Source: Squalus acanthias | Taxonomy: Eukaryota | Assembly (NCBI GenBank): GCA_030390025.1 | Contig: CM059432.1 | Location: 32,986,001-33,050,000 of the forward strand | Length of the DNA stretch: 64,000 nt | Direction: 5' to 3' | In this document: positions 1 through 64,000 of the stretch, in pieces | Layout: the number at the start of each line of letters is the position of its first letter | Position numbering within the stretch: position 1 is the first letter of the stretch | Translations under genes and position numbers: made by a program | Notes under the pieces: generated by a model | Database searches by the model: none | What the model was told of the DNA's origin: nothing | What the model saw: only the letters and a program-made list of their open reading frames with translations

Positions 1-469
1 CAAATACAACTATGGTCCCACTTTTCACAGAATTACATGTACCACATAACAAAAACACCGGCTTTTTTCTTTTAAATGAACTACAAATCCTCCCAAATGA
101 ACTACAAATTCAATTTAATAACTGGTTTGCGGAGCCTTCCTGATCTCGTTGCAAAAGGTTTTGCTGTTGTACCAATTTTCGGGCTGTTTTGTTTCCAAAC
201 TCAAAGAAGTAGGTCCCATCACTCTGTTTCCCCACTTGATGCAACTTTGTTCACAAGACAATTCAGTACAATGGTTATGGAATGGATTCAACTCTGTGTC
301 CAGACACTGATCAGTCCATCCATTCAAGGTGTTTTCATACACTTTTCAGTACAGAGTCCTTTTTGAGTCTCATTTGCAATCTCTGTTGCATTCACAGGAA
401 AGCCTTTGTCAACTGCACCTAGTGTGAAAATCTCACCTTTACTCCCAACACGGGTTCTCATGTGGCAAC

Positions 470-1145
470 TTTTTTTATTTGCTTATGGGCTCTGGGTGTC
501 GCTGGCAAGGCCAGCATTTATTGCCCATCCCTAGTTGCCCTTGAGAAGGTGGTGGTGAGCCGCCGCCTTGAACTGCTGCAGTCTGTGTGGTGAAGGTACT
601 CCCACAGTGCTGTTAAGTAGCGAGTTCCAAGATTTTGACCCAGCAACTATGAAGGATCGTCAATATACTTCTAAGTCAGGATGGTGTGTGACTTGGAGGG
701 GAACTTGGAGGTGGTGGTGTTCCCATGCGCCTGCTGCCCTTGTCCGTCTAGCTGGTAGAGGTCGCAGGTTTGGGAGGTGCTGCCGAAGAAGCCTTGGCGA
801 ATTGCTGCAGTGCATCTTGTAGATGGTACACACTAGCCGCGGTATGCCGGTGGTGGAGGGAGTGAATGTTTAAGGTGGTGGATGGGGTGCCAATCAAGCG
901 GGCTGCATTGTTCTGGATGGTGTCAAGCTTCTTGAGTGTTGTTGCAGCTGCACTCATCCAGGCAAGTGGAGAGTATTCCATCACACTCCTTACTTGTGCC
1001 TTGTAGATGGTGGAAAGGCTTTGGGGAGTCAGGAGGTTAGACACTCGCCGCAGAATACCCAGCCTCTGACCTGCTCTTGCTGGTACAGTTAAGTTTCAGG
1101 TCAATGGTGACCCCCAGAATGCTGATGGTGGGGAATTCAGCGATG
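470..1145 (-). mobile_element. 5'-truncated L2/CR1-group LINE (RT C-terminus plus 3' UTR)
   Basis: ORF 748-1044 IYKAQVRSVMEYSPLAW...LDTIQNNAARLI; A-rich tail at ~470-480. Confidence 0.8.
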
Positions 1146-2385
1146 GTAATGGTAACCTGGACAAGGCATCTGCGATTGAGTATCGCACTTCAAAGCAAAA
1201 CTCAATCATGTAGTTATATTGTGACAACACTGCCCAACGTTGCATTCTTGATGCGGCCATTGCAGGGATGGCAGATTTGGACCCCAATATTGCTTGGAGT
1301 GGTTTGCGATCGGTTATCAGGGTAAACTTTTTGCCGATCAGGGACTGTTGGAATTTCTTGATTCCAAACACTGGCGAGCGCTTCCTTTTCAATTTGTGCG
1401 TAGTTTCTTTTGCGCTTTGTGAGGGTTCGTGATGTGAACGCGATTGATTTCTCTTGGCTGTCATCCATTACGTGGGTTATGACAGCTCCCACACCGTAAC
1501 TGGAAGCATCGCACGCTAATTTAAGCTCACGCTCTGTGTTGTAGTGCACAAGTAGAGCATCGCAAGAGAGACTTCTCTTACAAGCGTCGTAAGCTTCCTG
1601 TTGTGCTTTTGTCCACTTCCACTGGACATCCTTGAGCTCATGCAATGGAGCTAACGTGATCGCTAACTCGGAAGAAACGTGCGTAGTACGGGACCATTCC
1701 AAGGAAAGATCTTGACTCAGACACGTTCTGTGGCTTTGGAGCATTGATGACAGCATCAACCGTTTCCTTAACTGGTTGCAATCCATTTACATCAACTTTC
1801 AGACCAAGGTACACAACCCCGGGCTGCACAAAAGCACATTTGCTCCTTTTCAATTTGACATTGTGGAAATTCAACCTTTTGAAGCACTAAATCTAACACT
1901 TCTAGATTTTCTTCCTCGCTGCTTGTTGCGATCAGCACATTGTCTTGATTGCATAAGCAATTTGGAACTCCTTGCAAAATCTTATCCATCGTAGCCTGGA
2001 AGATTTTTGGGGAGGCCTTTTATACCATGTGGCAGCTTGGTGTATGAGTACAGTCCCTTGTGTGTGTTGATGGTGAGATACTGTTGACTCTTTAACGTTC
2101 AGCTGAGCGTAAGCATGTGACAGGTCAAGCTTGGAGAAAACCTTTGACCCAGAGAGTGCTGCATACAAATATTGCGATGTAGGTAACGGGTACTGCTCAT
2201 CGTAACTTTGTAGTCACCGCACAAGCATGCAGTTTTTGTCTGCTTTGGGCATTACCACGATCAACGTAGCCCATTCACGTTTCAGTTTTTACTAGCACTC
2301 TGTTCTCTCTGAGCTTCGCTAGCTCTTCCTCCACCTGACTTTTCAACGCATAGGGGACCGGCCTTGCCTTACAATAGACAGGCTT

Positions 2386-4419
2386 CATAGAATCATAGAA
2401 GATAGGAGCAGGAGTAGGCCATTCGGCCCCTCTAGCCTGCTCCGCCATTCAATGTGATCATGGCTGATCATCCAAATTCAGTACCCTGTCCCTGCTTTCT
2501 CCCCATATCCCTTGATCCCTTTAGCCTTAAGAAATATATCCAACTCCTTCTTGAATCTATTTAATGAATTGGCCTCTACTGCCTTCTGTGGTAGAGAATT
2601 CCACAGGTTCACCTACTCCTCCTGGGTGAAGAAATTCCTCCTCATTTCTGTCCTAAATGGCTTACCCCTTATCCTTAGACTGTGACCCCTGGTTCTGGAC
2701 TCCCCGACCATCGGGAATATCCTGTCCTGTCAGAATTTCATAAGTTTTCAATGAGATCCCCTCTCATTCTTCTAAACTCCAGCGAGTATAAGCCCAATCG
2801 ACCCAATCTCTCTTCATACGTCATTCCTGCCATCCCAGGTATCAGCCTGGTGAATCTTCGCTGAACTCCTTCCATGGCAAGAACATCCTTCCTCAGATAA
2901 GGCGACCAAAACTGCACACAATATTCAAGGTGTGGTCTCACCAAGGCCATGTACAACTGCAGCAAGACATCCTTGTTCCTGTACGCAAACCCTCTCGCTG
3001 TGAAGGCCAACATACCATTTGCCTTCTTAACCGCCTGCTGCACCTGCATGCTTACCTTCAGCGACTGGTGCACAAGGGCACCCAGGTCTCGTTGCACTTC
3101 CCCTTCTCCCAATCTATTGCCATTCAGATAATCTGCCTTTCTGTTTTTGACACCAAAGTGGATAACCTCGCATTTATCCACGTTATATTGCATCTGCCAC
3201 GCTTCTGCCCACTCACCCAACCTGTCCAAATCATCCTGGAGTTTCTCTGCATCCTCCTCGCAGCACACACGCCCACCCAGTTTTGTCATCTGCAAACCTG
3301 GAGATATTACATCTAGTTCCCTTGTCTAGATCATTAATATATATTGTGAATAGCTGGGGTCCAAGGACCGATCCCTGCGGTACCCCACTAGTCACTGCCT
3401 GCCACTCGGAAAAAGACCCGTTTATTCCAACTCTTTGCTTTCTGTCTGCCAACCAGTTCTCTATCCAAGTCAATACCTTGCCCCCAATCCCATGTGCATT
3501 AACTTTACACACTAATCTCTTATGCGGGACCTTATCAAAAGCCTTTTGGAAGTCCAAATACACCACATTCACTGGTTCTCCCTTATCTATTTTACCAGTT
3601 ACATCCTCAAAAAATTCCAGTAGATTAGTCAAGCATGATTTACCTTTTGTAAATCCATGTTGACTTTGTCCAATCCTGTCACTGTTTTCCAAGTGCTCAG
3701 CTATTACATCTTTTATAATGGACTCCAGCATTTTCCCCACTACTGATGTCAGGCTTACCGGTCTGTAATTCCCTGTTTTCTCTCTACCACCCTTTTTGAA
3801 TAGTGGGGTAACATTAGCTACCCTCCAATCCATGGGTACTGTTCCAGATTCCATCGAATGTTGGAAGATGATCAGCAATGCATCTACTATTTCTAGGGCC
3901 ACTTTCCTTAAGTACCCTGGGGATTTATCGGCCTTCAATCCCTTCAATTTCCCTAACACCATTTCCCTACAAATACTGATTTCTTTCAGTTCCTCCCTTT
4001 CATCAGACCCTATGTTCTCCAACATCTCTGGGAGGTTATTTGTGTCCTCCTTTGTGAAGACAGAACCAAAATATGTATTTAATTGGTCTGACATTTCTTT
4101 GTTCCCCATTATAAGTTCCCCTGATTTTGACTGCAAGGGACCTATGCTTGATTTCACTAATCTTTTTCTCTTCACATATATCTATAAAAGCTTTTACAGT
4201 CAGTTTTTATGTTCCCTGCAAGCTTACTCTTCTATTTTCCCCTTCTTAATTAATCCTTGTCCTCCTTTGTTGAATCCTAAACTGCTCCCAGGGTTACTGC
4301 TTTTTCTGGCCAATTTATATGCCCTCTCCTTGGATCTTATGCTATCCCTAATTTCCCTTGTTAACCACGGTTGAATCACCCTTTTTGTTTTATTCTTATG
4401 CCAAACTGGGATGAACAAA
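2386..4419 (-). mobile_element. 5'-truncated CR1 LINE (ORF2 RT, frameshifted)
   Basis: [34 protein letters not shown] and LVRPHLEY motifs; (TTCTATGA)-type 3' tail at 2386-2400; near-identical to the copy at 24325-27397. Confidence 0.95.
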
Positions 4420-5094
4420 TTCGTGTTGGACTTGATGCGGATATGCGCGTTATACCCAGTGATGCCCTCATAACTGTCAGAACATGCTTTTGTACTTGTT
4501 CAGCATTGTCGAGTCGCTTCTTTGAAGCATCTACATATTCCAGGCTTTGCCCATGAGGGCTCGCTACAATAATAGGCAGCTTTACTGACTGGCCATTGTG
4601 TTGAACTGTACATTCCATTTGTCCACATGTCTAGGATTTCTCCAGAGTAGGTTTTAACTCTACAATACTTTGTAAATGGTACTTGATGAAACTTACTCGT
4701 GTCCTTAATCATGATAGAGCAGGCCGCCGTGTCGATACACATCAATATATTGGTTGCTGATCAAAAGTTTTGTACGGCAGTCTCTCTCACGACTGCTAGC
4801 GTTGCCACTAGTGGCATAGATACTGTAGATGCCTAGTTCTTCAACATCAGGTATGTTCACTTTTTAAGATTGTGAACTCCTCCCTTTTGTTGTCGCTGCT
4901 TTGCATTGCCATTAGAATGGTTCTTCCTGCTTTAGATCTAGCAGTGAAAACACTTCGCATTTCTGTATCGGCAGAACTGGAGTGATTTCCATTGCAGCGA
5001 TAACAATTCACTGAACTGCTCTCACCGACATGCTTTTGACCGAGTCTCTCCGCTTTAGATTTGGCAGTGGCTTTGTGACTGTAGACCTCAGCTT

Positions 5095-6375
5095 TGTAGG
5101 TGGTTTGCTTTGGTGGTTCGAATCACCTCTCCTTTTGCTTTGGTGGTTCGAATCACCTCTCCTACTTGGTTCTAGATGACTAGGAATTACGGTGAACAGG
5201 ATTGGAACACAGACAAGCTTTTCGGACGCAACCGTACGGTGTTTAATAAGGTTACCACACACCCGCCTCCAGTACGTAAAATGCCTGGTGGCGTAAAACA
5301 AACAGTACAACAATACAACTTGGCCCGTCGAACAGGCCCCTGTCTCGTATTAAGATGCCTAAAATCACTGTTGCAATACAGAATATAACATGGACTTGTC
5401 CCACAAACCCTGGAACATACACTATATAATACACACAACCTCCCCACTAAGCCCCTCTGGATTGGTTGGGACACACAACACCCCCTCACACAGTACCGGT
5501 GGTCTTAAGAATGCGTGGGCTTTGACAATGCTCACCCCGATTGTCTGTCTGTTTCTTGCTCGCTGCTCCCCTGTGTAGAACGTGTCTCCTGATTCCGTAT
5601 CGCCGATGCAGTATCCAGGTCCCAGGTTCGAGGTTTGTTCCTACAGTCGAAGAGCAAGGCAAGGCTCTTGTCGCTCGTGGTGGTTTCTTCTCTCCGTCTC
5701 GGATGGAGTGCTCGGTTCTAGGTTCAGAAATGAGGGCACGCGAGAGAGAGAGAGAGCGAGAATGGCCAAAGCTGCCTTCTCTTTTATACCCTAAAAGTTC
5801 ATTAAGGTCTGTGTACTGCAGTGATGTCTTTTTAATCACCCTTTTTTGTCTGGTTTCCCACCTTTTTGGGGCTATCCCATCTAGGTGCTAGTGTTAATGG
5901 CAGATGACTGGCTGCACTTCTTACCCGATCCCGGGTTAAGTGGTTTCCCATTAATTTACAATGGCCCGTCACCGTATGAGTCACCTACCCGGGCCCATTG
6001 TTTCCCAGAGAACTCCTGTCTGCTCAGACATTCTCCTGTAATCAGTTTGTAGGCCTGGCTGGAATCTCCTGTCCATCACAACACCTGGGCCCCTCCCATC
6101 TTCTCCAAACAGGCTGCTGGTCAATCAGCAGTAACAATCATACAAAATGTCCGATACAAAAAATCCTTGGTTTTCAGTTGCACTGGTCACTGAAGTTGGA
6201 CGGAGCTCCCGAGCATTCTTAGACACATCTCCATAGGGCAATTTTGCACGGTCAAAGGTTAGGTTCGGAGTGTTCAGTAACTTGGACTGTGCTCTCATCC
6301 ATCAGTCCACACGGTCAACGTACGATCCAAAAATGTGTCAAGTTGCAATGCAAAGACCAGTTTTTAAGAGCTACA
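5095..6375 (-). repeat. Long (~1.3 kb) solo-LTR-like insertion
   Basis: TGTAG...CTACA ends; non-coding; minus-strand TATA at ~5783; homologous blocks shared with 22561-23735; 30-bp tandem duplication near 5104-5163. No TSD, and flanking gag sequence appears deleted. Confidence 0.6.
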
Positions 6376-6869
6376 ATGCACTAACTGATGTTTCCACTTT
6401 ATTTTTGGTTTCTGGTACAAAACTTCTAGCTCTCTAATGGCTTTGGATAGAAATGGTCCTCGACTGTCTTCAAATGACGCATCCATTGCTTTCCCTGGCG
6501 TGAGTAGGTTTGTGTATGTTCCGTAGACATCTGGCCCGATCTTAGTTTTAAAAACAAAAATTGCTTTCTTCCGTTCATGGATTACTTTATTTTGAGCTTT
6601 GAACATTCTCATCTGCACCTTTTTGGTCTCAATGTTGTTCACCTTAAAAACATCCCATAGGCCATGATTGTCCCGATTCCATCGAACAGTGACTCAGCAC
6701 ACTACCTGTGAGAATCAATGCTGCTGTTGCTGTGTATACGTACACACAAAGTCGAAGCACAGACGATTCTGCATCAGCATTAACAGTAAAACATTGCAAA
6801 AATTCAGTTTAGGTGTCATAAATTCACCTTAAACTTTTCCACTTGAAGGTTGAACACTGTCCTTCCATG

Positions 6870-6887
6870 ATCCCATCCTCGTCGCCA
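6870..6887 (-). promoter_or_regulatory. Primer-binding site, tRNA-Ser(GCU)-type
   Basis: Minus strand TGGCGACGAGGATGGGAT, 3 nt after the LTR; complementary to a tRNA-Ser 3' end ATCCCATCCTCGTCGCCA (recalled sequence). Confidence 0.8.
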
Positions 6888-6890
6888 AAA

Positions 6891-7015
6891 TGTAAGGTGG
6901 GTAGAATGAATAAATGAATGACAGCGACACGATGAGTTGCTAGTGCATGTGCTTGCTTTACTAGGCTCGAGCAAACTGAGCATGCTTATACGAAACCATG
7001 TGATAATACATTACA
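6891..7015 (-). repeat. Short (~125 bp) 5' LTR of the old Gypsy element
   Basis: Begins TGTAA and ends TTACA; adjacent to the PBS. Confidence 0.75.
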
Positions 7016-7064
7016 TATAGGTTTACCTTAACTTCCTGGCTTTTTTATTCTATGCCTCTATTTG

Positions 7065-8150
7065 TAGACAAAAATGAGAAGTCGCACAACACCAGGTTAT
7101 AGTCCAACAGTTTTATTTGAAATCACAAGCTTTCGGAGCTATCGATCGCCCCTTCCTCAGGTGAAGTAAAGAGATACAGAATCGCCAAAGCATATATAGA
7201 TAGAAAACAATGCATGTGTTACTTACAAAAGCAGACGACTACATTTAAATCACCCTGACTGTTTATCTGCCGAGGTGTGAGAAAAGTCAATCGGGTCACA
7301 TCAAAGACATAGCAAGATACAACTGAGACAATGAGGTGGAGCCACAGGGGGTCCAATGTGTCAAAAGCCATAGTATGGGAAACGATAAACTTAAAATGTT
7401 TTACTTTTTTACTGGGAATCACATCTGTTAACAAGCCAACGATGACTCGAGTCTGGATCACGTCATGTATCGTGACATAAACCCAAGATCCCGGTTGAGG
7501 CCGTCCTCATGAGTGCGGAACTTGGCTATCAGTTTCTGCTCGATGATTTTGCGTTGTCGTGTGTTCCTAAGGCCGCCTTGGAGAACGCTTACCCGCAGAT
7601 CCGAGGCTGAATGTCCTTGACTGCTGAAGTGTTCCCCGACTGGGAGGGAACACTCCTGCCTGGTGATTGTTGCGCGGTGTCCGTTCATACGTTGTCTCAG
7701 TGTCTGCATGGTCTCGCCGATGTACCATGCCGCGGTGCATTCTTTCCTGCAACGTATGAGGTAGACAATGTTGGCCGAGTCACATGAGTATGTACCATGT
7801 ACCTGGTGGGTAGTGTCCTCACGTGTGATGATGGTATCTGTGTTGATGATCTGGCATGTCTTGCAGAGGTTGCCGTGGCAGGGTTGTGTGGTGTCGTGGT
7901 CGCTGTTATCCTGAAAGCTGGGTAATTTGCTGCGAACGATGGTACTTCTGAGGTTAGGCGGCTGTTTGAAAGCAAGTAGTGGAGGCGTGGGGATGGCCTT
8001 AGCGAGGTGTTCGTCATCAATGACATGTTGGAGGCTGCGAAGAACATGACGTAGTTTCTCCGCTCCGGGGAAGTACTGGACGACGTAGGGTACCCTGTTG
8101 GTTGTGTCCCGTGTTTGCCTTCTGAGGAGGTCTATGCGATTTTTTTCGCT
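7065..8150 (-). mobile_element. 5'-truncated Penelope-like element (GIY-YIG end plus terminal repeat)
   Basis: TLRQRMNGHR...PVGEHF...EQKLIAKFRTHEDGLNRD; the terminal region matches 10160-10260. Confidence 0.9.
7123..7164 (-). ncRNA. Minimal type I hammerhead ribozyme in the Penelope terminal repeat
   Basis: Minus strand: TCAC-CTGAGGA-A-GGGGC(gatcgata)GCTCC-GAAA-GCTT-GTGA. Confidence 0.75.
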
Positions 8151-8401
8151 GTGAGTGTAGAGCTCAGGCTCTCATGCTTTTTAAGTGCTTGGCTGACCTA
8201 TTCTGCTACCTTCCAAGATTTGTCCACAAACCCCTCCCAGGTCTCTGTTATTGCACCCTCTTTAAAACTACCGTTTAGCTTGGCTTGGTGCTCTTGATTT
8301 TCCCCAAATTCTGCAAAGAATTCAATAAGGTTTGTCGGTCAAGCATTCAGTTTCTAAATGATTCTCTGTTACATCTTTAAGGATTCCATTATCTTTACTA
8401 C

Positions 8402-8960
8402 TGTAAGATTTTTATTTCGACTGGCATTAAATTGACAGCAACACCAATTCTTTTGAAACAATTTGGAATAAGTTTATTAAACACACACATGCACATAGCC
8501 TATTGGACAAAACAACAGTCTACTGGTATCCTATGGACTCTACTTGATTACAACAGGTAAGGTAATGGGTTATAGATTTAAACAGACTTATCCTTCCCTC
8601 TGTCAGGCAACGCATGTGGTGGTCTTCCTTGCTTCTTGGCCTGGTCTGCAGAGGGGGGCTTCCTGCTTTGCCGCGTGGTCATCGAGACAGCGAGCGAACT
8701 CCTCCAGCTTTTGGGTTGCTTTTTATGTCTTTTAAAGTCCATTGTCTCTAGTGTAAATGCTAAAAACCCCAGGATTGGGTCTTGGTTTCATGGCAGTTCT
8801 TAATTGGCTTTCCTTACTCATGTATCTGTCTGCAGAGGCTGGTGCCATTTCTTGATTAAGTTAATTGTTTTGTTAACACCTTTTTAATGGCTGAGTTTTG
8901 ATGGGTTTGTTTACCCTGAAAGTCATGCTGTCTCTGTGGGGGTTACCTTGTTCAAGTTTA
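8402..8960 (-). repeat. Possible LTR remnant
   Basis: Starts TGTAA, minus-strand AATAAA at ~8475, non-coding, adjacent to a retroviral integrase fragment. Boundaries uncertain. Confidence 0.35.
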
Positions 8961-8964
8961 TTTA

Positions 8965-9690
8965 TGTTTCGTGCTGTGCCTCGTGTGGTGAATAGCCAGT
9001 CATCCGCGACGGGGTTGCCCGAACAGCCATGAGTACCAACGGGAGTCTAATATCCCATTGTTTAGGAATAATCTCCTTGCGGAGCTTCTCCTTCCAAGTC
9101 CTATTCATTCGCTCCACAATCCCTGAAGACTGGGGATTGTATGCCACATGCCATTTATCCTGTATGCCCAGAAGTTTAAGTGTGTTCGCTGTTACTTACC
9201 CCGTAAAATGGCTCCCTTGGTCCGATTCCACTATCCTTGGAATTCCTCACAGTGAGAACCTCCTTCACTAGAATTTTGGCCGTGCCGTGGGCTGTCTCCG
9301 CTTTGCACGGGAAGGTCTCCACCCATTTAGAGAAATTGTCGACAATGAGGCAGTACTTATCCCCACTGGATGTGGTGCGGAGGGGCCCAATATAATCAAT
9401 TTGTATAGCTTGCCTTGGCCTTTCCACTCTGTGACCGAGGGGTGCCTTTCTCTTCTGGGGGTCAGGGTTATTTGCTGCACACGCCAAGCATCTCTCAGAA
9501 ATTCCGGACATCATCTTGGAGGTTAGGCCACCACGCTACGGCCTCTATTTGTTTGGTGGTCATGACCGGGCTCTGGTGGCCTGTTCCTGGTCCCCTCCCC
9601 CCATGGACTAATTGTATAAATTCTTCCCTGTGATGGTGCGGGACAACCTATGGTCATTATGGAAGAGCATTCCCTGTCTTAACACTGTTG
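8965..9690 (-). pseudogene. pol: Lokiretrovirus-like integrase fragment
   Basis: CLACAANNPDPQKRKAPLGH...IQIDYIGP...NPQSSGIVERMNRT closely matches the integrase at 49376-51016; frameshifted. Confidence 0.85.
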
Positions 9691-10219
9691 ACCTCATCAT
9701 TTCGTTTAGCCCGGATCATTTCGTTTAGCCCGGATAACATTTTTGAGAACTGGATCCGCAAGTTGTATGCCTTTGTTTTCAATTTGATACCATCCTTAAC
9801 TTCCTTAGTTAGCCACGGATGGTTCATTCTTCTCCTTAGTCTTTCCTTCTCACTGGAATATATCTTTGCTGAGAGTTATGAAATATCTCCTTACATGCCT
9901 GCCACTGTCTTACCCTTTACTCTATTTTCCCAGTCCACTTTAGCCAACTCTGTCTTCATACCTTTGTAATTGCCTTTATTTAAGTTGAGGACACTAGTTT
10001 GAGACCCAAGTTTCTCACCCTCAAACTGAATTTGAAATTCTAACATACTATGATCACTCTTCCCTAGAGGATCCTTCACTATGAGATCATTAATTAATCC
10101 TATCTCATTACACAATACCAGATCTAAAATATGACGTGGAGATGCCGGTGTTGGACTGGGGTGGACAAATGTGAGAAGTCGCACAACACCAGGTTATAGT
10201 CCAACAGCTTTATTTGAAA

Positions 10220-10256
10220 TCACAAGCTTTCGGAGCGCTGCTCCTTCGTCAGCTGA
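10220..10256 (-). ncRNA. Minimal type I hammerhead ribozyme in the Penelope terminal repeat
   Basis: Minus strand: TCAG-CTGACGA-A-GGAGC(agc)GCTCC-GAAA-GCTT-GTGA; one mismatch in stem I. Confidence 0.7.
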
Positions 10257-11178
10257 AGTGAAGAGATGCATATAGGCACAGCATATATAGTCAGAACACT
10301 GCCAGATGATTACAGTTAATCTTTCTAACTGCCCTTTATCACACCTCGGCAGAGAGATAATCACGGCAATCAAAGGTGTGGATGGTGTCCAAACAGGTCA
10401 GTCAGGAAAACATTACATCAAAGACAATGAGGTGGGGTCACAAGGGGTCAAATGTGTCAGATGCTGGGGTCTGTATGGAAAACAAAAGACTTTTTTTGCT
10501 GGAAATCACAGCAGGTCCGGCCGCATCTGTGTAGAGAGAACAAGCCAAGGACGACTCGAGTCTGGATGACTCTACGTCAGGTGGGGTTACATGTAGCGTG
10601 ACATGAACCCAAGATCCCGGTTGAGGCCGTCCTCATGGGTGCGGAACTTGGTTATCCGTTTCTGCTCGACGATTTTCCATTGTCGTGTGTCTCGAAGGCC
10701 GCCTTGGAGAAAGCTTACCCGAAGATCGGAGGCTGAACGTCCTTGACTGCTGAAGTGTTCCCCGACTGGGAGGGAACACTCCTGCCTGGCGATTGTTGCG
10801 CAGTGTCCGTTGATACGTTGTCGCAGTGTCTGCATGGTCTTGCCGATGTACCATGCTCCAGGGCATCCTTTCCTGCAACGTATGAGGTAGACAACGTTGG
10901 CCGAGTCACATGAGTATTTACCATGTGACGTAATAAAGACTCACTACGCACTTGAACATAAAGCAAGGCTTCAATCAACTTGTAACGAAACATGGAGGTC
11001 TAGTTAGCAGTCACTAGCTTCCTGTTTCCAGATTGTCTCTGCCCAAGGTGGGCCCATGCCAGAGTATTTATACTCCCTGGATGGCGCCCCAGCTGGCCGC
11101 CCAGTAGTACTTCCTGAGTTGTTACTTGCGATTTATGACATTCTTCCTCCCTAAAAGGTTTGGAAGTCCAGTCTTCCT

Positions 11179-17087: not shown

Positions 17088-17186
17088 ATTCTCTTTGCCA
17101 GAAAAGTAATGAGGTACAGCAACTAAAGTAGCAGCAAAGTTAGGATGAACTAGACCAAACTACCTCACAAAGCGTTGTCAATGTAG

Positions 17187-17189
<3 letters not shown>

Positions 17190-17232
<43 letters not shown>

Positions 17233-17514: not shown

Positions 17515-17517
<3 letters not shown>

Positions 17518-49370: not shown

Positions 49371-49375
49371 ATCTC

Positions 49376-53149: not shown

Positions 53150-54947
53150 TCATTGGGTACTATTGGACGGGGCTGCGGCATCTGCGGGGCCGGTAGCAAC
53201 CGCCACCCTTCCATGCGAACTCATGAGGGTGCGCATGGCTCCCAACACTGATTCGATCGCATCGGGATGGATAGGTGCACTAGCTCCCCTATCGGAGACA
53301 GGCGCCTGGGCTCGGACTGCGGGATTTTTATCCCTGGACTCCTTCCAAGGGTTCCTGCAGTTCTTGCGCCAATGCCCTGTCTTCCCACACCCGTAACAAG
53401 CATTACTGGCCTGCGGGGCGCGGTTACCCTCCTGATGCCACTCCTTTTGAGCCGGGGCTGCGGGTCGTGCCTCATGCACCTTTCCCTTAAGGGGACGTGC
53501 TCCCGTACTCCTGGTATTACGGTACCCTACCGTGAGTCGATTTAGGACCGACTCCTCTGTAGTGGCGGGGTTAGTGGGATCAAACCACGCTTTTGCCTGC
53601 TCCCTGACGGCTGGCAAACTGTTGGTTACTATACACTTGAGCCAATGAGTTAAACTGGCATCGTCTATGCGCTGGCGCGCCTGGGCAGCTACGCTGGTAT
53701 ACTGGCCACAGCCTGTCGGCGAAAACCTTCGGGGGTTCTCCCTCCATCTGCACTGTTCGTCCCAATCTAATGAACGGACCTTCATCGTCCATTCCCAACA
53801 CTTCTAGGACCTCATCTCTTAGCTCCCCATAGGTATTAATTCCCCTCTTGCTCTCGTCTGAGAGACACTGAAGGATCGAGCTGTCTAATGAGAATAACAG
53901 CATTTTTGCTTTTTCCCCATCGTCGCAGCCGTTAATGGCTGCGGTTTGCTCTACTTCCCTGAAATGTACGGAAGGGTCGTCTGACTCGGCCAGCTTCCGT
54001 ACGTGACTGATCATAACCCTCAGCTGGTGTGAGCTGTGAGGCAACACAAGCTGGTTGAGGAGATCCCCCTCTTCCCCACCTGCTCCGTTCGGGCCCCTCT
54101 TGATACCCGTGACCGGACACAACGGTCCCGGCTTCACTTCTACCTCAGTGGGCTCTTTCTCTACTTCTACCACTTCCTCCCTCACCCAGGTTGCCGAATA
54201 GCTGGGTGGCGCGGAGGGCACAGTGGCTAATACCTCCTCTGCTTTGTTCGGTGGGGATTTCTGAAATCCCTCATCCACTAGCGGCTGGTGTGCTGACGGG
54301 CTGATAAGGCACACCATGCCGTGCGCTTTGTTCAAGGCCCTTTTAAGGTTCCCTATCTCTTTTTGGCAGACACTGTGATCGGCCCCCTGAAGTTTATCCT
54401 CGAGGGCCATCTTATATGCCGCCCTAACCCCCGTTAAGCTCTCTTCCTGGGCTTTTATTTGGGCAGCTAGGCGGGCACATCGTTCCTTTAATCTGCCCTC
54501 ATTTAACTTTGCCTCAGTGACCTGGCACTCGAGGTAATCTATTTTCGCCTCATGGTGGTTGGCGACTAACTGCCGTTCTTGATGCAACGCATTTAAAGTC
54601 GCGATGAGCTGCTGCCCCCCCCGCGACCTTCTCGTCCATTTCCACCTCTAAACTCTTGATCTGAGCTGCCTGCGCTAAGATGACCTGGTCCGAAATTTGG
54701 ACTTGTCTTTTATAGCACATCAGCCAGACCGCTTTCTCCACTTTTTTTATGTTCCTTGCTTATCTGTCCACCTCTCGGCTGCCTCTAGTGGACGCTTATC
54801 CACCAGCAGGTCACTTATCCATTTCTTGGTCAAATTCACTTTTCCAAACACATAATCTGCTATTCTCTCTTCCATGACATTTCGCCCATTCATACCAGGG
54901 TCTAACACATTATTTTCTCGCTGCCAGTGTCCTGCCGCGGTCGCCAT
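53150..54947 (-). pseudogene. gag: gag with coiled-coil N-terminus and one CCHC knuckle, about three frameshifts
   Basis: CYGCGKTGHWRKNC; consecutive ORFs 54747-54947, 54550-54741, 53580-54587 and 53150-53785 change frame. Confidence 0.85.
54929..54946 (-). promoter_or_regulatory. Primer-binding site, tRNA-Arg(UCG)-type
   Basis: TGGCGACCGCGGCAGGAC, complementary to GTCCTGCCGCGGTCGCCA (recalled vertebrate tRNA-Arg-TCG 3' end). Confidence 0.8.
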
Positions 54948-54951
54948 TTTC

Positions 54952-56645
54952 TGTTAGGGGTGAGACCTGTGGCTCTGTGCTTAGCCTGGGTGCTAGTGCG
55001 AGGTTAGGCCTTGTTGCCTGTTCTGGTCTCCAGCCAGCCTGGTAACACTAGACACCTGTGAGTGGTTCGACCCACTCGCCCTTACGGTTCTGACACTGGA
55101 CTTAGGTGCGAGAGCAATAATGCAGAGAAAACTCAGGTAGACCCGGTTGAATAGTGCAAAATGGAAAATCTTTATTGCATATTATTCAAGATTACGAAAT
55201 ACATGTCATAAGCACAGATTAATGACAGTACAATCTTACACGCAGTTATGTAACTAATTTTTGGGAAACGAGGAGCGCACGACACATCGAAAAAGGGGGC
55301 ACACATTACAATTATCCTTAAAACTTAAACCCTCCCCTATCAATACCTGTCCTAAACTAGATTTGTAGGATCGAGACTCATGCTCACCACTCGTGATAAC
55401 TCGGAGAATTCCGAAACTCTGCTCGGATGTTTTTCCTGCAGCACCTGACCACCCACGTGTTGATCAGGGGTCTCTGTACCCCACTTGTTTACTCGTCTCT
55501 GCTCCGGCTAGCAGGCTGGACCGTCTGCTGTCATGAAGATCTGTGTTGTCCTCGGAGTTCCGACACTACTCAAAAAAGAGTCTTCCTGTGCCCTCACACC
55601 GATGCGATAAAATTCGAAGAATGGTCTTCCTGGGCAAGAAAAAGGTGTTTATTCGACTTGCAGGCGCGGTCGGAGCTTACTGACCGTGGCGATACGTATT
55701 GTCGTCGTCGTCTTCTTCTCTCATCTCTATCTCTCCCTCTCCCTCTCCCTCTCCCTCTCCCTCTCCCTCATCCCTCATCCCTCATCCCTCATCCCTCATC
55801 CCTCATCCCTCTCCCTCATCCCTCGTTCCAACACCGTTTACCGACTTCTCGGGATGGTGTGCCCGTTTCAAGGCCTCACAGCCCAGTTCTTCACAGATCT
55901 TCGCGGCAAGCCACGAGGTTGATCCTGGTGGATCAGAAAGTTCAATAGTCTTCCAGCAAGTCAAACAGCAAGAGCTGCAAGAGGCAGAGGCACGAGGCAA
56001 GAGGCAAGAGCAAGAGACAGATGGACGGTTGTACCTTAGTTATAGTGCTGTAATTCCTCTTTTCCCGCCCAATCTTAATGTCTTTCTTTTGTCAGGGTTT
56101 TGGCGCTCAAACTTCTTGTATAGGGTGATCTCCGTTTAATGGGTTTCGGTGATACTTGTAACTGTCTGAGTACCCGTTAATACTTCTCCCATTGTGGAAC
56201 CGGTCAGTATTCTCCCTGGAGGGGTTTTGGGGCTGCCAAATGCTTTCTGTAACTACCCGCAAACGGCTCTCTCATCGTAGAGTCGTGGGGATTTTGCATA
56301 TTAATGTCTTTGGATGGGTTCTTGATCGCTCGGTACAATAGCCCTTATTCGCACCTGGGAGACCGACTCCAGTATTTATGCATAAAATGCAAACCCATTA
56401 TGTCTTGTCAATTATCTCAAATGTGCTGAGTCTTGTCCGATCTCGCACAAATGTTTATTGGAACGCCATCTTGTCTGCTCATTGAAAAGTCTAGAACGTT
56501 CTGCCACGAGGCGTGGCGGCCATTTTACAGGCTGTTTGTGTCCACTTTGAAAACCTGACAGCATTCTGCTGAAATAAAGCTGTTTGTACGAAACTTTATG
56601 TCTCCTCTTATTTTATAAAATCGTGATAATTTTGCGAATTCTACA
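54952..56645 (-). repeat. Long (~1.7 kb) 5' LTR of the provirus
   Basis: TGTTA...CTACA ends; abuts the PBS on one side and Penelope RT on the other; minus-strand AATAAA ~55172; internal (CCCTCT)/(CCCTCAT) repeats 55730-55825. No second LTR to confirm boundaries. Confidence 0.65.
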
Positions 56646-56900
56646 ACCGTCAATTTGGAGGAAGTGAGTGGAGTCAAAGGAGAAGTTGTTCAATGTGAGA
56701 ACAAGTTCAGCCAGGCAGAGGAGGGTGGTGGTGGATGGGGACTGGTTGGGCCTCTGTTCAAGGAAGAAGAGGAGCGCCCTCAGGCCATCCTGGTGGGGGA
56801 TGGAGGTGTAGAGTGATTGGACGTCCATTGTGAAAAGGAGATGGTTGGGGCCAGGAAACTGGAAACTGTTAGTGGCGGAGGGTGTCGGAAGCATCGCTGT
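56646..56900 (-). mobile_element. Penelope-like RT fragment
   Basis: FTMDVQSLYTSIPH..LVLTLNNFSF..FLQ. Confidence 0.85.
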
Positions 56901-57291
56901 TGTACAGACAAACATACAGATTAGGAGCAGGAGTAGGCCACTCGGCCCTTCGAGCCTGCTCCACCATTCAATAAGATCATGGCTGATCCGATTACTCCGT
57001 CTACCCCTGATAACTTTTCACCCCTCTTGCTTACCAAGAATCTATCTACCTCTGCCTTAAAAATATTCAAAGACCCTGCTTCCACCGCCCTCTGAGGAAG
57101 AGAGTTCCAAAGACTCACGACCCTCTGTGGAAAAAATTTCTCCTCATCTCTGTCTTAAATGGGCGACCCCTTATTTTTAAACAGTGACCCCCTAGTTCTA
57201 GATTCTCCCACAAGAGGAAACATCCTCTCCACATCCACCCTGTAAAGACCCCTCAGGATCTTATGTTTCAATCAAGTCACCTCAAGTCAAC

Positions 57292-57650
57292 GGCAACACG
57301 GTGCCATAGTGGTTAGCACTGGTGCCTCACAGCGCCAGAGACCCGGGTTCGAATCTGGCCTCGGGTGACTGTCTGTGTGGAGTTTGCACATTCTCCCCGT
57401 GTCTGCGTGGGTTTCCTCCGGGTGCTCCGGTTTCCTCCCACAGTCCAAAAATGTGCGGGTTAGGTTGATTTGGCTATGATAAATTGACCCTTAGTGTTAG
57501 GGGGGGATTAAATATGTGGGGTTACGGGGATAGGATGGGATATGTTAGGGGGAATTAAATACGTAGGGTTACGGGGATAGGGTGGGATATGTGTCGGTGC
57601 AGGCTCGATGGGCCGAGATGGCCTCTATCTGTACTGTGGGGATTCTGTGT
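57292..57650 (+). mobile_element. HE1-like tRNA-derived V-SINE
   Basis: A/B boxes (AGTGGTTAG, GGTTCGAATC); V-domain GGAGTTTGCACATTCTCCCCGTGTCTGCGTGGGTTTCCTCCGGGTGCTCCGGTTTCC; CR1-like tail. Confidence 0.9.
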
Positions 57651-57760
57651 GAGGGAGCAGGGACGGGGTACTGGATTTGGATGATCAGCCATGATCGTAT
57701 TGAATGGTGGAGCAGGCTCAACGGGCCGAATGGCCTACTCCTGCTCCTAGTTTCTATGTT
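57651..57760 (+). mobile_element. CR1 3'-end fragment
   Basis: GATCAGCCATGATC..GAATGGCCTACTCCTGCTCCT..TTCTATG. Confidence 0.85.
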
Positions 57761-58576
57761 TACTCTTAACTCCAGCGGATACAAGCCTAGCCTGTCCAAC
57801 CTTTCCTCATAAGATAACCCGCCCATTCCAGGTATTAGTCTAGTAAACCTTCTCTGAACTGCTTCCAATGCATTTACATCCTTAAATAAGGAGACCAATA
57901 CTGTACACAGTACTCCAGATGTGGTCTCACCAATGCCCTGTATAACTGAAGCATAAGCTCCCTACTTTTGTATTCAATTTCCCTCGCAATAAACGATAAC
58001 ATTCTATTAGCTCTCCTAATTACTTGCTGTACCTGCATAGTAACCTTTTGCGATTCATGCACTAGGACACCCAGATCCCTCTGCAATCTCTCACCATTTA
58101 AATAATTTTTTTTATTCTTCCTGCCAAAATGGACAACTTCACATTTTCCCACATTATACTCCATTTGCCAGATCTTTGCCCACTCACTTAGCCTATCTAT
58201 ATCCCTTTGTAGCCTCCTTATGTCCTCTTCACAATTTACTATCTTTGTGTCATCAGCAAATTTAGCAACCATACCTTCGGTCCCTTCATCCAAGTCATTT
58301 GTATAAATGGTAAAAAGTTGAGGCCCCAGCACTGATCCCTGTGGCACACCACTCATTACATCTTGCCAATCAGAAAATGACCCATTCATGCCTACTCTGT
58401 TTCCTATTAGCTAGCCAATCTTCTATCCATGCCAATATGTTACCCCCTACACCATGGGCTTTTATTTTCTGCAATAACCTTTTGATGTGGCACCTTATCA
58501 AATGCCTCTGGAAATCTAAGTAAAGTACATCCACAGCACATGTTACTTCCTCAAAGAACTCCAATAAATTGGTTAA

Positions 58577-61500
58577 ACATCCATTTCACCAAGGATCGAG
58601 CAAGTGTCACGGCGCATGCGGTTGGATTAGCTAATATGGCAGGCTTTCTAAGGGTGCAGGGCGTCGTTGACTGCACACATGTGGCCCTTCAGGCACCCCA
58701 TCGCAATCCAGGTATTTTTCTCAACTGCAAGGGCTTCCACTCCCTCAATGTTCAGCTGGTGTGTGACCACAACAAGGAAGTTCTGCATGTTTGTGCCAAG
58801 TACCCTGGCAGTTGCCATGACTCCTTCATACTGCGCCAGTCTAGTGTGCCTCCGCTATTCAGTCCACCAGACCAACTTCACGGATGGCTACTTGGAGACA
58901 AGGGCTATCTCCTGAGGACGTGGCTAATGACGCCGTTGAGGAGCCCATCCAACGCAGCTGAGGAGAGCTACAACTCCAGCCACATTTCCACCAGAGCCAT
59001 AATCGAGCAAACCATCAGTATGCTGAAGATGCGCTTCAGATGCCTGGATAGATCAGGTGGAGCCCTGCAATACTCAGCAGCCAGGGTCTCCAGAATCGTC
59101 GTGGTTTGCTGTGCACTTCACAACATGGCACAGTGTCGTGGCTTACAGATGCCGGAGGACCAAGTGGCTCCTCACATAGCCTCCTCAGATGAGGAGGAGG
59201 AGGAGGAGAGAGAGAACGAACAACTTGCAGAGGCCCCTCAACCAGCGGCAGCATTACGCGAGACCATAGCTGCCCGGAATGCAAGGAACGCACTCCTCTT
59301 GGCCAGATTTGCTTAGCCTAGACAAGAAAGCACTTTTGCCTCGCAGCTTCTTACCAGAGCTACGACAATGGCCCAGACCCAGTGGATCCCTAACAATTTG
59401 ACCACCATACTGACAATTGCAAGTTATCCTAAGGCCTCATTTGTGGAAGTCCCATTAGCGAAATGACAGATCCCACAACTGCAGCTGTAGCCATCAGAGT
59501 TTTTATTTAAACTTTAGACCTGATGGCTTTTTAACAATACACATTAAAATTCACCCAAGTGACTATTTGTGCAGTTTCTTTCTCTTACGCGTGCTCCTAC
59601 GTGGTGCTTCCCCTGTGGCTTCAGCAGAAGTGGAGGCCCCCTGCTCACTTTGTTGCTGCTCCTGTCTCGACTCCTTTGGCGGGCGTCCTCTGGGGATGTG
59701 AACCTGAGAGGGCTCGGCAACAGTCTGCTGCTCCTGCGGCTGGGCAGGGGTTGAGACGCGATCTCACTTGGGTGCGGACCTGAGCAAGGACCTGTCAGTG
59801 GCATGGAAGTGTGAGCGCATGGAGAGGAGCCCCCACCTCCTTGTGTGCCACCAACATCCCTCTCATGGGTCAGGTCCACCTCAGCGCTTGCAAGTGGCTT
59901 GAGAGCACCTTGCTGCACATCAGGGGGGCCATGGGGACCCGCATCTGCACTGGAAGTCCTACTCAGAAGGACTTCCATGAAGGTCTGGTTTCCCTGTTCA
60001 ATAGATGACCATCGCCCCTCCAGAGATGTCATTCTATTCCGAACACTCACCATGTTTTCAGCACTCTGGCGACTTATCACCTCCATGGAGGTTGCCATCC
60101 TTTCCATGGTGATGCGTTCATGCGCCAATGACTCCACAAAGGCTCTGCTCATGTTCGCTATGGACTCCTCCATTCGCTCCACACTCGCAGAGACTCCTGC
60201 ATCTGTTCCTGGAGTCCCAGCAACGCTGGTCTTATGGATGGACCCAGAGGGAGAGGGTCGACATGCAGCTGAGCCGAGCTAGGAGAGTCCTGCGCCCTCC
60301 GACTAGGACTCTCCACTGCTGTCCCTGTCTCCACCATCTGCTGATGCTCATTTGTGAGCTGTGATGCACCAGGTGACAACACTATATGTCCCGAGGGTCC
60401 CACCGAGATGTGAGTGTCTGCGCTGGTGCTGGGTGCGCTTAGTTCTGCTGACGCTGCGCCCTCAGAGGTTGCAGCTTCCTCTGAGGAGTCTGTCTGCTCA
60501 GGCTCTTCCTCCTAGGTAGTGTGGACGGGTGCTTGCGATGGTCCTGTGGGGGAGTAAAGGAAAGAGTCAGAGATGTGATGCCAAGGTTACATGCACATTG
60601 CATATTGCAGATGATCATAAATCCATCTGTTGGAGCTTCAGATTCATTATCAGCGACTCATGCAATGTCAATGAGAGAGATGGAACACTATTCAGTCACC
60701 AGCTTGCTCTGATGCATTTGTCTGTCGGTCCCCCACTTGCGTTTCCTCCTCGACGCCCACGATCTCCAGGACCGTATCCTCCCAGGGGGTGAGCTGGGCT
60801 AATGAGGGTGGCCCTCCTCCTGTCCTGGCTCTTTCCCTTTTATTGTGAGCTCTCTTCCTGCAATGAGGGAGACAAGTGGAGTTTGAGTGAGATTGAAGAA
60901 GTGAGTGTAGAGAATCCATAGCATAGATGCTTAGAAGGAGACAAAGATGGATTGAGCTGGCGAGACTAAGGGCCCTCCCTGTGTGTTGTAAGTTGTTTTC
61001 AAAGCATAACAGTGATGGGGAGTGTGAGGGCTGCATAGTCGAATAGTAAGGTGAATGTGACCATAGAGGGAGAGGGAATGGGTAAGGGTGCATGGACGTC
61101 AGTGTCAAGTGGGATATGGAGGAAGAGGTTGCTAAAGCGGAGTGCTGGTGAGGAGAGGCAATGGGGATCAGATTGAGGGTGAAGGGAAAGTCATACTCAC
61201 TTTAGTAGTACGTAGAAGGTCATGAAACCTCTTCCTGCACTGGATCCAGGTTCTGCATGTGAATGATAGAGGTGACCTCCTGGGCTATCTGGACCCACAC
61301 AGCCTTTGTCTGCTGGGGAGGCTTCTTCCTCCCTGAGGAGGGGAAGAGCACCTCCCTGTTGGCTTTTGCTCCATCCACCAAAGCCTGAAGGGCAACGTCA
61401 TGGAACCTGGGAGCAGCCCTGGGCTGTTGGCTGGCCATTCCTGCTGCAGGTTTTCAGATTAGAGGTCCAAAAGCTTGGCAGCCTGTAGAGGAAGCAAGGC

Positions 61501-61715
61501 TTGTTGCAGACCTTAAATGCAGCAGCAATGATGACGTCATCGGAGGCGACTTTCAGACTGGAATAACTCATTGGCCATGGGTTCCCACATGTTGGAACTC
61601 AATTGGCCAATTAAGTTAAAATCGCATCATTCATCCACATTAATCTGGAGTCGGGGGGGCAACACGAAATGCGGGTAACACGACCCCAACCTGACCCCAA
61701 GACAAAATCCAGCCC
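58577..61715. mobile_element. Harbinger-B2, left end missing
   Basis: Colinear with 29205-32372; transposase C-terminal part open to 59316 (+); right TIR CAAAATCCAGCCC. Confidence 0.93.
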
Positions 61716-62269
61716 AATGTCTTTTCCATAGTTAAATTGAAACTCACCGGTGTGTCTGTGCTTCTAGGTCCAACTGCACCACGCCCCTACCACTGGGCCA
61801 AACAGGATCAGCAGTAACAATCATACAAAATGTCCGATACAAAAAAAAATCCTTGGGGCCTGCGTCGATGCTTACAGAAGTAATCTGTTGCAACGTGGGA
61901 AAATGGCTGAACTTGTTTTCTAATCTGACGGGAGAAAAGTAACTGTCATAAATGACTTCACACTGAAATGCAAATCATGAGCAAAAAGCCCCTTCCCTTG
62001 CAGTCTTAAATTCAGTTTGTTCATGTGGCCCATGGTATCAACAGCGAGTCCGTTTTGTTCAACTGTGGGGGGGGAAAATGCCAAATTTTTTCTTTTTTAA
62101 AAACAAACCAATCTCTGTTCACAGTTCCCACACTCTTTTTTTCAAAGCTTTACCCAAACTAAACCACTTACGTTGCTATGATATAGAACAACCATCAGCT
62201 CGGATTCCGATTCCTCAAGCAGAGTTACAAATTGCCTGTAGTTTAATCCTTTTGCTCAAATGCAGTTGA

Positions 62270-63100: not shown

Positions 63101-63205
63101 TCCGAATATCGGTTAGGGTTCAAGCGTATTTTTCTGGTCGGATCTGGTAACGTAGTCACATAAAAATCAATGAACCCCAGTGAGACCCAAATCGCTAAAC
63201 ACTTA

Positions 63206-63617
63206 GGGGGAGAAATTCAGTATCACCCCATTTGGGGCGCAATTATCGGCCGGGCGCAAAGATTAGCGCCTGGCGCTAATTATCGCCTCTGACTGCAAAC
63301 TTGACTTTTATCGCCCCCTGGAGGTGATTGGAGCGCTAAATCAGGCGCTACACATCTGTCTTAAGGCGCAAAGGCCGAGGAGCGAGGCGTTAACTCAGAG
63401 CGCGGGCGCAGCGCAGGTGCAGTCAGTTAGCGATGGAACACAGACACACTGGCGCTGGACAGTTCTTAAAGGGGAGGGTCGATCTTGCACTCCAGCCACA
63501 CCCTGCTCATTGGAGCCTTGAATCTCGGCCTGGAGAGACCTGTGCCTAAATCTTCCAGCCAAGGACTATGGAGAGGGTGAGAGAACGAGCTCAGCGCTTC
63601 AGCGAGTGGGCCTTGGA
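63206..63617. mobile_element. Left end of a Harbinger-A-related element
   Basis: GGGGGAGAAATT after TTA; similar to 13459-13860 up to MERVRERAQRF; cut by a CR1. Confidence 0.88.
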
Positions 63618-64000
63618 TAGAACATAAAAACATAAGAAATAGGAGCAGGAGTAGGCCAATTGGCCCCTCGAGCCTGCTCCGCCATTCAATAAGATCATGG
63701 CTGATCTGATCCTAACCGCCAATCTACTATCACAGAACCATCTCCTGAACCTAACAGAATTGGACACACAAAATAGCAGCAGGATCAGGCTACACGGCCC
63801 CTGGGCCCGCTACGCTACCCACAGGGCCATGACTGATCCGAACCGAGACTCATGTCCAAATTCCTGCCTGCTCCCCGTAACCCTTAATTCCCTTTACTTC
63901 GAGGAAATTGTCTATTTCTGTTTTAAATTTATGTAATGATATAGCTTCTACAGCTTTTTGGGGCAGCATATTCCATGGACCTACCACCCTGAGTGAAGTA
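63618..64000 (-). mobile_element. CR1 3'-end fragments
   Basis: ACATAAGAAATAGGAGCAGGAGTAGGCC tail; a second, diverged 3' end from ~63760. Confidence 0.75.

Follow-up and report, generated by a model that had tools for sequence, protein, structure and literature searches.

Introduction

The flamenco (flam) loci of Drosophila measure 227–1,085 kb, and in the fly flam-like clusters dealt with in the passages of PMC10643416 used here the orientation bias concerns Gypsy-type elements only. An antisense bias of long interspersed nuclear elements (LINEs) and long terminal repeat (LTR) elements is well established in mammalian genes, where it is attributed to selection against termination and splice signals on the sense strand; the most extreme figure in the part of that source drawn on is 23–28% sense, in introns near exons (PMC3088655). 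In the axolotl, clusters of PIWI-interacting RNAs (piRNAs) are in their majority uni-strand, with a median length of 10 kb, and the main piRNA producers include Harbinger, endogenous retrovirus (ERV) and LINE families; in the elephant shark the genes of the cytoplasmic piRNA pathway are present except Pnldc1, and Piwil4 is also present (PMC7618676, in the excerpts used here). A literature search for mapped piRNA clusters in sharks and other cartilaginous fish returned gene-inventory statements and no such cluster. Here we describe a stretch of 64,000 nucleotides of the shark Squalus acanthias (contig CM059432.1, here C8; C8:32,986,001–33,050,000, plus strand; assembly of 3.71 Gb), called the window, in which transposons of unrelated classes lie almost without exception on the minus strand. 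The window forms the left part of a polarity domain that extends rightward from its left edge over at least 284 kb, and the most likely cause of this polarity would be transcription of the plus strand across the domain.

Results and Discussion

Orientation of the Insertions in the Window

A preliminary description, made from the letters of the window, had held that nearly all of its insertions lie on the minus strand, and this was borne out by three counts. Of the 319 stop-to-stop open reading frames (ORFs) of at least 70 amino acids in the window, 317 were compared with Pfam (the nested ones at 11187–11666 and 46519–47019 were left out), and retroelement domains (RVT_1, RT_RNaseH, RNase_H, rve, aspartyl protease, zf-CCHC, GIY-YIG and Exo_endo_phos) were found in 18 ORFs, all 18 on the minus strand and none on the plus strand. 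When 40 Pfam-labelled retroelement ORFs taken from the window and its flanks were used as tblastn queries, the matches in the window merged into 14 minus intervals (27,202 bp) and no plus interval. Counted as elements, the retroelement insertions of the window amounted to 14 minus versus 1 plus, the two-sided binomial p being 1e-3 for 1/15 plus and 1.2e-4 for 0/14 plus. The split had earlier been put at 20:2; a one-way bias of the same order was obtained, with 14:1 as our own element count. In Pfam the window LINEs were represented by reverse transcriptase and AP (apurinic/apyrimidinic) endonuclease only, and self- and flank alignment added non-coding LINE tails and Penelope-like pieces in the same (minus) orientation. 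The biased elements range in age from about 65% identity up to identical LTRs.

The sole plus exception of the window is an insert at 57284–57761 that ends in an inverted LINE tail, its part 57656–57761 being the reverse complement of the LINE tails at 2391–2496 and 24328–24432. It had been described before as a short interspersed nuclear element (SINE) with an adjoining CR1 tail; the single plus piece and its inverted tail are confirmed, and the SINE identity stays putative, no tRNA-like head having been found at 57284–57761 with Rfam or ARAGORN.

Extent and Border of the Polarity Domain

Positions are given in window coordinates, negative values lying upstream and values above 64,000 downstream. 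The DNA compared consisted of the window with 100 kb on each side (264 kb) and of 10-kb samples at +164, +214 and +274 kb, i.e., 194 kb of the 284-kb span was sampled, with +174–214 kb and +224–274 kb outside the sample. Over the window and the next 100 kb downstream, tblastn gave 35 minus intervals (48,857 bp) versus 1 plus interval (75 bp), and the three 10-kb samples gave 6 minus intervals versus one 57-bp plus match, which brings the total for the 194 kb sampled to 41 minus coding-homology intervals and 2 plus ones, both tiny. The 100 kb upstream contained 18 plus and 10 minus intervals (Fisher p 5.5e-8 versus the window and the next 100 kb downstream). When hits within 3 kb were merged, the domain still showed 14 minus versus 1 plus.

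The identical picture emerged from repeat alignments made without any annotation: inside the window and downstream block, 228,354 bp aligned in the same orientation versus 9,090 bp in the opposite one, the corresponding values within the upstream block being 49,104 and 17,386 bp. Between the upstream block and the domain, 19,806 bp aligned in the same and 67,710 bp in the opposite orientation. The classes biased are LINE, Penelope-like, Gypsy, ERV and a pogo-like DDE_1 remnant; the last is a pogo/Tigger-like transposase remnant on the minus strand at L014:5783–6957, i.e., 79783–80957 (DDE_1, E 6e-30; HTH_Tnp_Tc5), on the same strand as the retroelements.

The left border is sharp, the last plus LINE ending at −1704 and the first minus piece starting at 471, and the adjoining 43 kb of upstream intergenic DNA are without polarity (9 plus versus 5 minus intervals). 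Exceptions within the domain are all short: a Harbinger-B-like piece at 74001–74797, a 250-bp piece at 78711–78962 and a LINE piece at 85176–85569, each in the opposite orientation, and two further opposite pieces of unassigned type. Repeats or retroelement homology cover 85% of the window, 77% of the next 100 kb downstream and 54% of the 100 kb upstream, so that the region belongs to the transposon-dense regions of tens to hundreds of kilobases (77–85% cover, at least 284 kb). A CpG-rich patch at −7.4 to −6.4 kb, the only such patch near the border outside obvious young elements, was considered as a promoter and rejected as a dispersed repeat.

Independence of the Insertions

The probability given earlier was conditional on independence of the insertions, and this holds: the elements have private target-site duplications, and no alignment spanning more than one element family was found in the 264 kb except for the mobile ERV and Harbinger composite described below. 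The window contains a four-level nest in which a LINE was entered by a Penelope-like element (duplication AAAAT), this by a Gypsy element, Gypsy1 (CCATG), and this by a Harbinger element of family A (CTT). The 5-bp duplications of Gypsy1 (CCATG), of a second Gypsy element, Gypsy2 (ACCCT), and of the nested Penelope-like element (AAAAT) mark the nested elements as separate events. Gypsy2 was itself inserted inside a Harbinger-A copy, and the Harbinger-A copies have distinct duplications (CTT, TAG, ACA, TAA) and flanks. Contigs of two public sequencing runs join 13454 to 17885, the Gypsy1 site empty of Harbinger, and must therefore come from other Gypsy1 copies without that Harbinger. The ERV with its adjoining Harbinger-A recurs 59 kb downstream with an identical junction; the two copies are only 88–92% alike and are thus separate integrations.

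Harbinger Families and the ERV Composite

Harbinger elements carry convergent genes, and, as the preliminary description had stated, both orientations occur when they are judged by the direction of the transposase; inside each family the copies are co-oriented. In the domain this co-orientation is 9:0 for family A and 9:2 for family B. Two of the nine Harbinger-A copies are passengers of the ERV, leaving an independent count of 7:0. Inverted Harbinger-A copies were found upstream (2 copies) and inside the downstream gene ALS2CL (1 copy). Site-specific insertion was rejected as the cause of the co-orientation of Harbinger-A, four complete copies with matching duplications having different target sites.

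The ERV-like family (37356–56645; L016:6673–L017:9995) carries Harbinger-A at a fixed site between an env-like ORF and the LTR. Among 39 non-self matches, the right junction between ERV and Harbinger was present nearly full-length in 28 and the left junction in 27, in both cases on many contigs. Both junctions were found on one contig at 25 places, about 4.1–4.5 kb apart in 15 of them and about 0.7–0.9 kb in 10; the former spacing is that of a full Harbinger and the latter that of a deleted form. It seems, as judged from these junctions, that the ERV has spread a DNA transposon, or its deleted derivative, by retrotransposition.

The flanks of the ERV-associated Harbinger-A in the window (37356, 45927) differ, with CAG on the left and GTA on the right. 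There is no ERV LTR to the left of the copy at 37356, and its left junction is unique in the genome but for one 87% match. This arrangement suggests that recombination between two Harbinger copies may have removed the ERV LTR at 37356.

Harbinger-A was present at 12 loci in the 294 kb sampled between −27 kb and +275 kb, and genome-wide first-look candidates numbered at least 761 with a 300-bp internal piece as query and from at least 1,523 to at least 2,204 with end and junction queries. At least 39 copies of the family share 99% identity, and this young family seems to have a hotspot in the region.

Elements of the Window

The leftmost element is a LINE 3′ tail fragment at 471–1151 (minus), the reverse complement of the 3′ end of a plus LINE with coding matches at −3678 to −2154; its copies in the domain are co-oriented with it. 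An old Gypsy-like pol remnant at 1099–2213 (minus) matched RT_RNaseH_2 (E 7.5e-26), RT_RNaseH and, weakly, RVT_1. The 5′-truncated LINE at 2386–4422 (minus; RVT_1, E 1.4e-29), previously called CR1, has its 3′ end at 2386, is 91% identical to 24325–26416 and has genomic copies at 90–96%. A Penelope-like fragment at 7064–8153 (minus) is homologous to 10161–10926 and 19865–20223, with Penelope-like matches on the minus strand in tblastn, and it is followed by an old integrase-bearing LTR/ERV remnant at 8965–9763 (minus), which showed a weak rve match, 70% identity to the ERV integrase DNA at 49965–50390 and minus-strand tblastn matches.

The nested stack occupies the interval 9763–24325. Its outermost member is a LINE (minus) split into the pieces 9763–10131 and 22134–24325, which adjoin in the copies at L013:3385–4195 and L019:1689–2331. 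The Penelope-like element nested in it (10131–10926 and 19865–22139, minus) has a GIY-YIG domain at 10590–10940 and a weak RVT_1 match at 20619–21308. Gypsy1 (10926–19865, minus) is a full-length LTR retrotransposon with TG..CA ends and 215-bp LTRs that are 100% identical, pol at 11179–13515 and gag/protease at 17832–19556 according to Pfam. Seven of the 12 differences listed for its pol stretch 11252–13172 are T in the window versus C in the contigs, read on the plus strand, that is, on the sense strand of the element, A here and G in the other copies; the numbers are small. A trace of editing of the cytidine-deaminase type, or a lineage difference, is possible. The Harbinger-A copy in Gypsy1 (13459–17885) has terminal inverted repeats and matches to Myb, on plus, and to the transposase DDE_Tnp_4, on minus.

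To the right of the stack lie a long LINE at 24325–28176 (minus), with reverse transcriptase (RVT_1, E 2.4e-26), AP endonuclease (Exo_endo_phos at 26855–27229) and tblastn matches over 24810–27870, and a Harbinger-B element at 28177–32372 with terminal repeats, its transposase on plus (DDE_Tnp_4, E 9e-37) and its Myb gene on minus. An old Harbinger-B-like fragment at 33503–35563 aligned at 66–78% to B copies and is oriented as the others. The Harbinger-A copy split by Gypsy2 (37356–39514 and 43923–45927) is joined at its right end to the ERV as in the mobile composite. Gypsy2 (39515–43922, minus) is a full-length LTR retrotransposon with 195-bp LTRs of 98.97% identity and a 900-aa pol ORF (RVT_1, RNase H, rve).

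The ERV-like element at 45928–56645 (minus) contains an env-like ORF, pol and gag and matched RVP, RVT_1, RNase_H, rve and zf-CCHC. It has an LTR of about 1.7 kb at 54951–56645, an LTR at the env side was not found in 45928–56645, and the LTR unit recurs at three other places of the domain. The env-like ORF (46029–48536, 835 aa) had no Pfam match, and pol is spread over three frames. There follow a Penelope-like fragment at 56646–56904 (minus; tblastn match to Penelope-like proteins, 91% identity to L021:1147–1404) and a LINE fragment at 56904–58580 (minus), with its 3′ end at 56904, which was recognized from alignments and from RVT_1 (E 8.3e-12) at 57874–58410. A left-truncated Harbinger-B at 58577–61716 is 94% identical to 29206–32372 (DDE_Tnp_4, E 4.3e-37), a left-end fragment of Harbinger-A at 63206–63618 is oriented as the other A copies, and at the window edge a LINE 3′ tail at 63771–63998 (minus) matches L004:2549–2780 in the same relative orientation as 2397–2645.

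Neighbouring Genes

The layout of the region is as follows: a PKR-like gene on the minus strand at −78 to −43 kb, 43 kb of mixed DNA, the polar block from 0 to about +230 kb, repeat-dense and without a detected coding exon in the DNA sampled, and ALS2CL on the plus strand. The best protein matches of both adjoining genes are shark RefSeq models, which makes the shark origin of the DNA credible, and the two proteins are encoded on one contig in six other sharks.

The upstream gene was recognized from a 194-aa ORF that matches the protein kinase family and has as its relatives shark models named 'interferon-induced, double-stranded RNA-activated protein kinase-like'. With three such models as tblastn queries, nine collinear exon matches were obtained on the minus strand from −43.4 to −78.3 kb. 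The gene is complete (L005:1669 to L008:6590, i.e., C8:32,907,669–32,942,590, minus) and ends 43 kb before the window; a location of the window inside one of its introns was excluded, since all nine exon matches fall between −78.3 and −43.4 kb. The kinase is of the eIF2-alpha kinase type, and its shark relatives have a long Ser-rich N-terminus; for these relatives the precomputed Pfam annotation lists kinase domains only and no dsRNA-binding domain, and their RefSeq names vary (PKR-like, Nek6-like, aurora kinase C-like).

Downstream, one of the 106 ORFs in the three far samples matched MORN repeats (E 1e-7, above the curated cut-off). This exon has a clean acceptor and donor and is 72–94% identical to ALS2 C-terminal-like proteins of sharks and rays. 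Of 33 ALS2CL matches, 22 were collinear on the plus strand over C8:33,221,845–33,293,564 (+235.8 to +307.6 kb), covering amino acids 20–962 of 977 and including exon matches in the far sample at L025:4028–4123 and 6421–6597 (plus). The gene is compact, with about 72 kb for some 960 codons. No ALS2CL exon was found in 0–174 kb or in 214–224 kb, and the 184 kb covered from 0 to +224 kb contained no coding exon that could be detected. When 293 ORFs of at least 50 aa from stretches of the domain free of repeats were scanned with Pfam, none matched a host family; the scan yielded one minus pogo-like transposase remnant and one more Harbinger transposase. A weak Sec10_N match in non-repeat DNA at +167 kb (L023:3299–3589, minus; E 2.2e-4, 21.7 bits versus a cut-off of 27.4) is probably due to chance. 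The retroelement pieces in the PKR-like gene are antisense in 3 cases and sense in none, and those in the 10-kb ALS2CL sample likewise (3 antisense, 0 sense and one doubtful 57-bp plus match).

Origin of the Polarity

Integrase-driven, target-primed and cut-and-paste elements are all biased, which makes it unlikely that one mode of insertion is responsible; the simplest cause is selection linked to the reading of the plus strand. We infer that the plus strand is transcribed, that selection brought about the polarity and that the transcript is processed into piRNAs. The plus strand of the domain would be read as one long RNA, and this reading would decide which insertions survive: those with their sense strand on plus would bring polyadenylation and splice signals, shorten the long RNA and be lost, and those on the minus strand would persist and accumulate, in nests of up to four levels. 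Given some 230 kb with no detected coding exon, the densest repeats and young captures, the long RNA would most likely serve as the precursor in a unistrand piRNA system, its antisense transposon content giving rise to silencing small RNAs, as in a flamenco-type trap. The interval between the PKR-like gene and ALS2CL is thus proposed, tentatively, to be a flamenco-style unistrand piRNA cluster of giant size (at least 230 kb), and, with the same reserve, this trap would hold every active transposon class in antisense, including the ERV that carries Harbinger. Mammalian-type pachytene clusters are a different system, transposon-poor intergenic units that often diverge from an A-MYB-bound promoter; the domain, which consists of about 80% repeats, does not share their transposon-poor make-up.

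The cluster reading is favoured by the fact that very young elements, from every class, have gone on being captured, and by a domain size within the 227–1,085 kb given for flam (PMC10643416). As far as the passages used from that source go, the shark domain resembles the Drosophila flam-like clusters in its length of hundreds of kilobases, very high transposon density and mostly single orientation, in the catching and nesting of young insertions and in a defined border beside host genes (PMC10643416). Strong strand bias of the insertions, a feature of unistrand clusters, is likewise present, with a direction of transcription relative to the elements that we infer. It is unlike the fly clusters in that the bias spans LINE, Penelope-like, ERV, Gypsy and a pogo remnant (PMC10643416), in that it is known from DNA polarity alone and not from precursor RNA, promoter or piRNAs, in having a vertebrate host, somatic follicle-cell expression not being implied, and in the presence of the protein-coding ALS2CL in the biased domain. 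With the axolotl clusters it shares a large transposon-rich vertebrate genome; those clusters were defined from small-RNA data, whereas the shark domain exceeds their median length more than 20-fold and is delimited by DNA polarity only (PMC7618676, in the excerpts used here).

Several observations speak against a cluster. No promoter was identified near the left border, and the detection of exons was weak, being limited to ORFs of at least 50 aa with a Pfam match and missing non-coding 5′ exons. Steady germline transcription might leave a mutational strand asymmetry, an expectation that comes from mammals. The private substitutions of 11 Harbinger copies of the domain (A>G 58 versus T>C 63; C>T 146 versus G>A 131) showed none, in a comparison of low power and with no control gene. 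The plus-strand ALS2CL lies inside the biased domain, at +236 to +308 kb. A bias specific to Gypsy and ERV elements, as given for the fly clusters in the passages used here, was not found, LINE, Penelope-like and pogo-like elements being equally biased (PMC10643416); a bias of all classes would agree better with a general requirement that the transcript stay intact than with selection favouring particular piRNAs. The vertebrate uni-strand clusters covered by the excerpts of PMC7618676 are mostly much shorter. Lastly, ordinary antisense selection in genes may be strong enough in the shark genome to explain the bias: the PKR-like gene and ALS2CL, each with 3:0 antisense pieces, indicate that strong selection of this kind may be normal here, and with these two genes as the ones inspected, both 3:0, the domain is not claimed to be more polar than shark genes in general.

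It is quite possible, then, that the domain is an ordinary host transcription unit with no piRNA role, namely the first intron, of giant size, of an ALS2CL gene transcribed from a distal promoter close to the left edge of the window, or else a plus-strand gene or long non-coding RNA upstream of ALS2CL that has escaped annotation, and that the polarity is the usual purging of sense transposons from transcribed DNA. ALS2CL on the plus strand within the domain, the antisense pieces in both genes inspected and the bias of all element classes, which is expected if cis signals matter, agree with such a unit, as do the lack of germline mutational asymmetry in the low-power comparison and the position of a minus PKR-like gene next to a plus unit, a common divergent arrangement; antisense bias of LINE and LTR elements in genes is moreover well established, and the shark elements resemble the mammalian ones in lying antisense to the gene that holds them, as in the PKR-like gene and ALS2CL (PMC3088655). 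However, the 184 kb sampled between 0 and +224 kb yielded no exon, and for a gene as compact as ALS2CL (about 72 kb) a first intron some 230 kb long would be exceptional. The shark ALS2CL models start with a short coding N-terminus, which must fall within about 12 kb of the first mapped exon, being absent from +214–224 kb. Only 2 of the 43 intervals of the domain are sense, a proportion beyond the strongest mammalian intron figures of 23–28% seen in the part of the source used (p 5e-4 against 25% sense, the values available for comparison being mammalian only; PMC3088655). Unlike mammalian introns with such bias, the domain is without detected exons over its first ~224 kb as sampled and is more repeat-dense than the flanking genic DNA, and, for a functional intron, both its repeat density and its number of full-length young LTR elements are high.

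The co-orientation of the Harbingers in spite of their convergent genes is a puzzle for the piRNA cluster and for the ordinary unit alike. It would be accommodated by a polar process other than transcription, either the direction of replication forks from an origin near the left edge or a self-reinforcing, orientation-coupled insertion into elements already present: elements without a single sense strand are co-oriented per family (A 9:0, B 9:2), and orientation flips between the divergent genes (19,806 bp same and 67,710 bp opposite between upstream block and domain) in a manner that resembles an origin switch. Such a process is nevertheless improbable, since Gypsy and ERV, LINE and Penelope-like, and pogo and Harbinger elements are all biased and no single insertion mechanism covers them, and since the Harbinger-A insertion sites have no common target motif; the known effects of fork direction on LINE orientation are small. 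Far less probable still is chance, or a set of copies that are not independent of one another because a composite block underwent segmental duplication. The ERV with Harbinger-A does occur twice in the domain with the same junction, but this junction is found at 28 (right) and 27 (left) other places and the local copies are only 88–92% alike, other elements have private duplications and flanks, and the count is still 14:1 after merging of hits within 3 kb. Segmental duplication as the cause of the bias is largely refuted by the junctions of the mobile composite together with the private duplications and the flanks.

Experimental Section

Sequence Searches

The Pfam set was that given above for the window, and nine flank ORFs of at least 140 aa (L021, L022) lay outside it. 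Rfam at the gathering threshold gave 0 matches in the 264 kb and ARAGORN 0 tRNA-like genes within the window, so that no hammerhead or tRNA-head could be used as a marker of orientation; Tandem Repeats Finder returned nothing relevant. A search of public sequencing runs with positions 1–10000 of the window listed none recorded as RNA. Contigs from four public runs, compared with positions 1–20000 of the window, aligned only to high-copy families and left the old locus-specific stretches nearly uncovered.

Conclusions

On either of the two transcription-based readings the locus preserves, as a natural record, some forty independent insertions that have been sorted by orientation. Should the domain be an ordinary transcription unit, it would show that selection on the orientation of insertions can come close to being absolute in shark genes, and it would be a useful gauge of the harm done by sense-strand insertions in the shark lineage. 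If piRNAs are made from it, sharks would have their first described locus of this type, and a concrete one at which to see how large, transposon-rich vertebrate genomes organise their defence against transposons. It would then be possible to ask whether flamenco-type traps predate the split between cartilaginous and bony vertebrates, and very large one-strand transposon traps would be an old vertebrate feature and not a speciality of insects.

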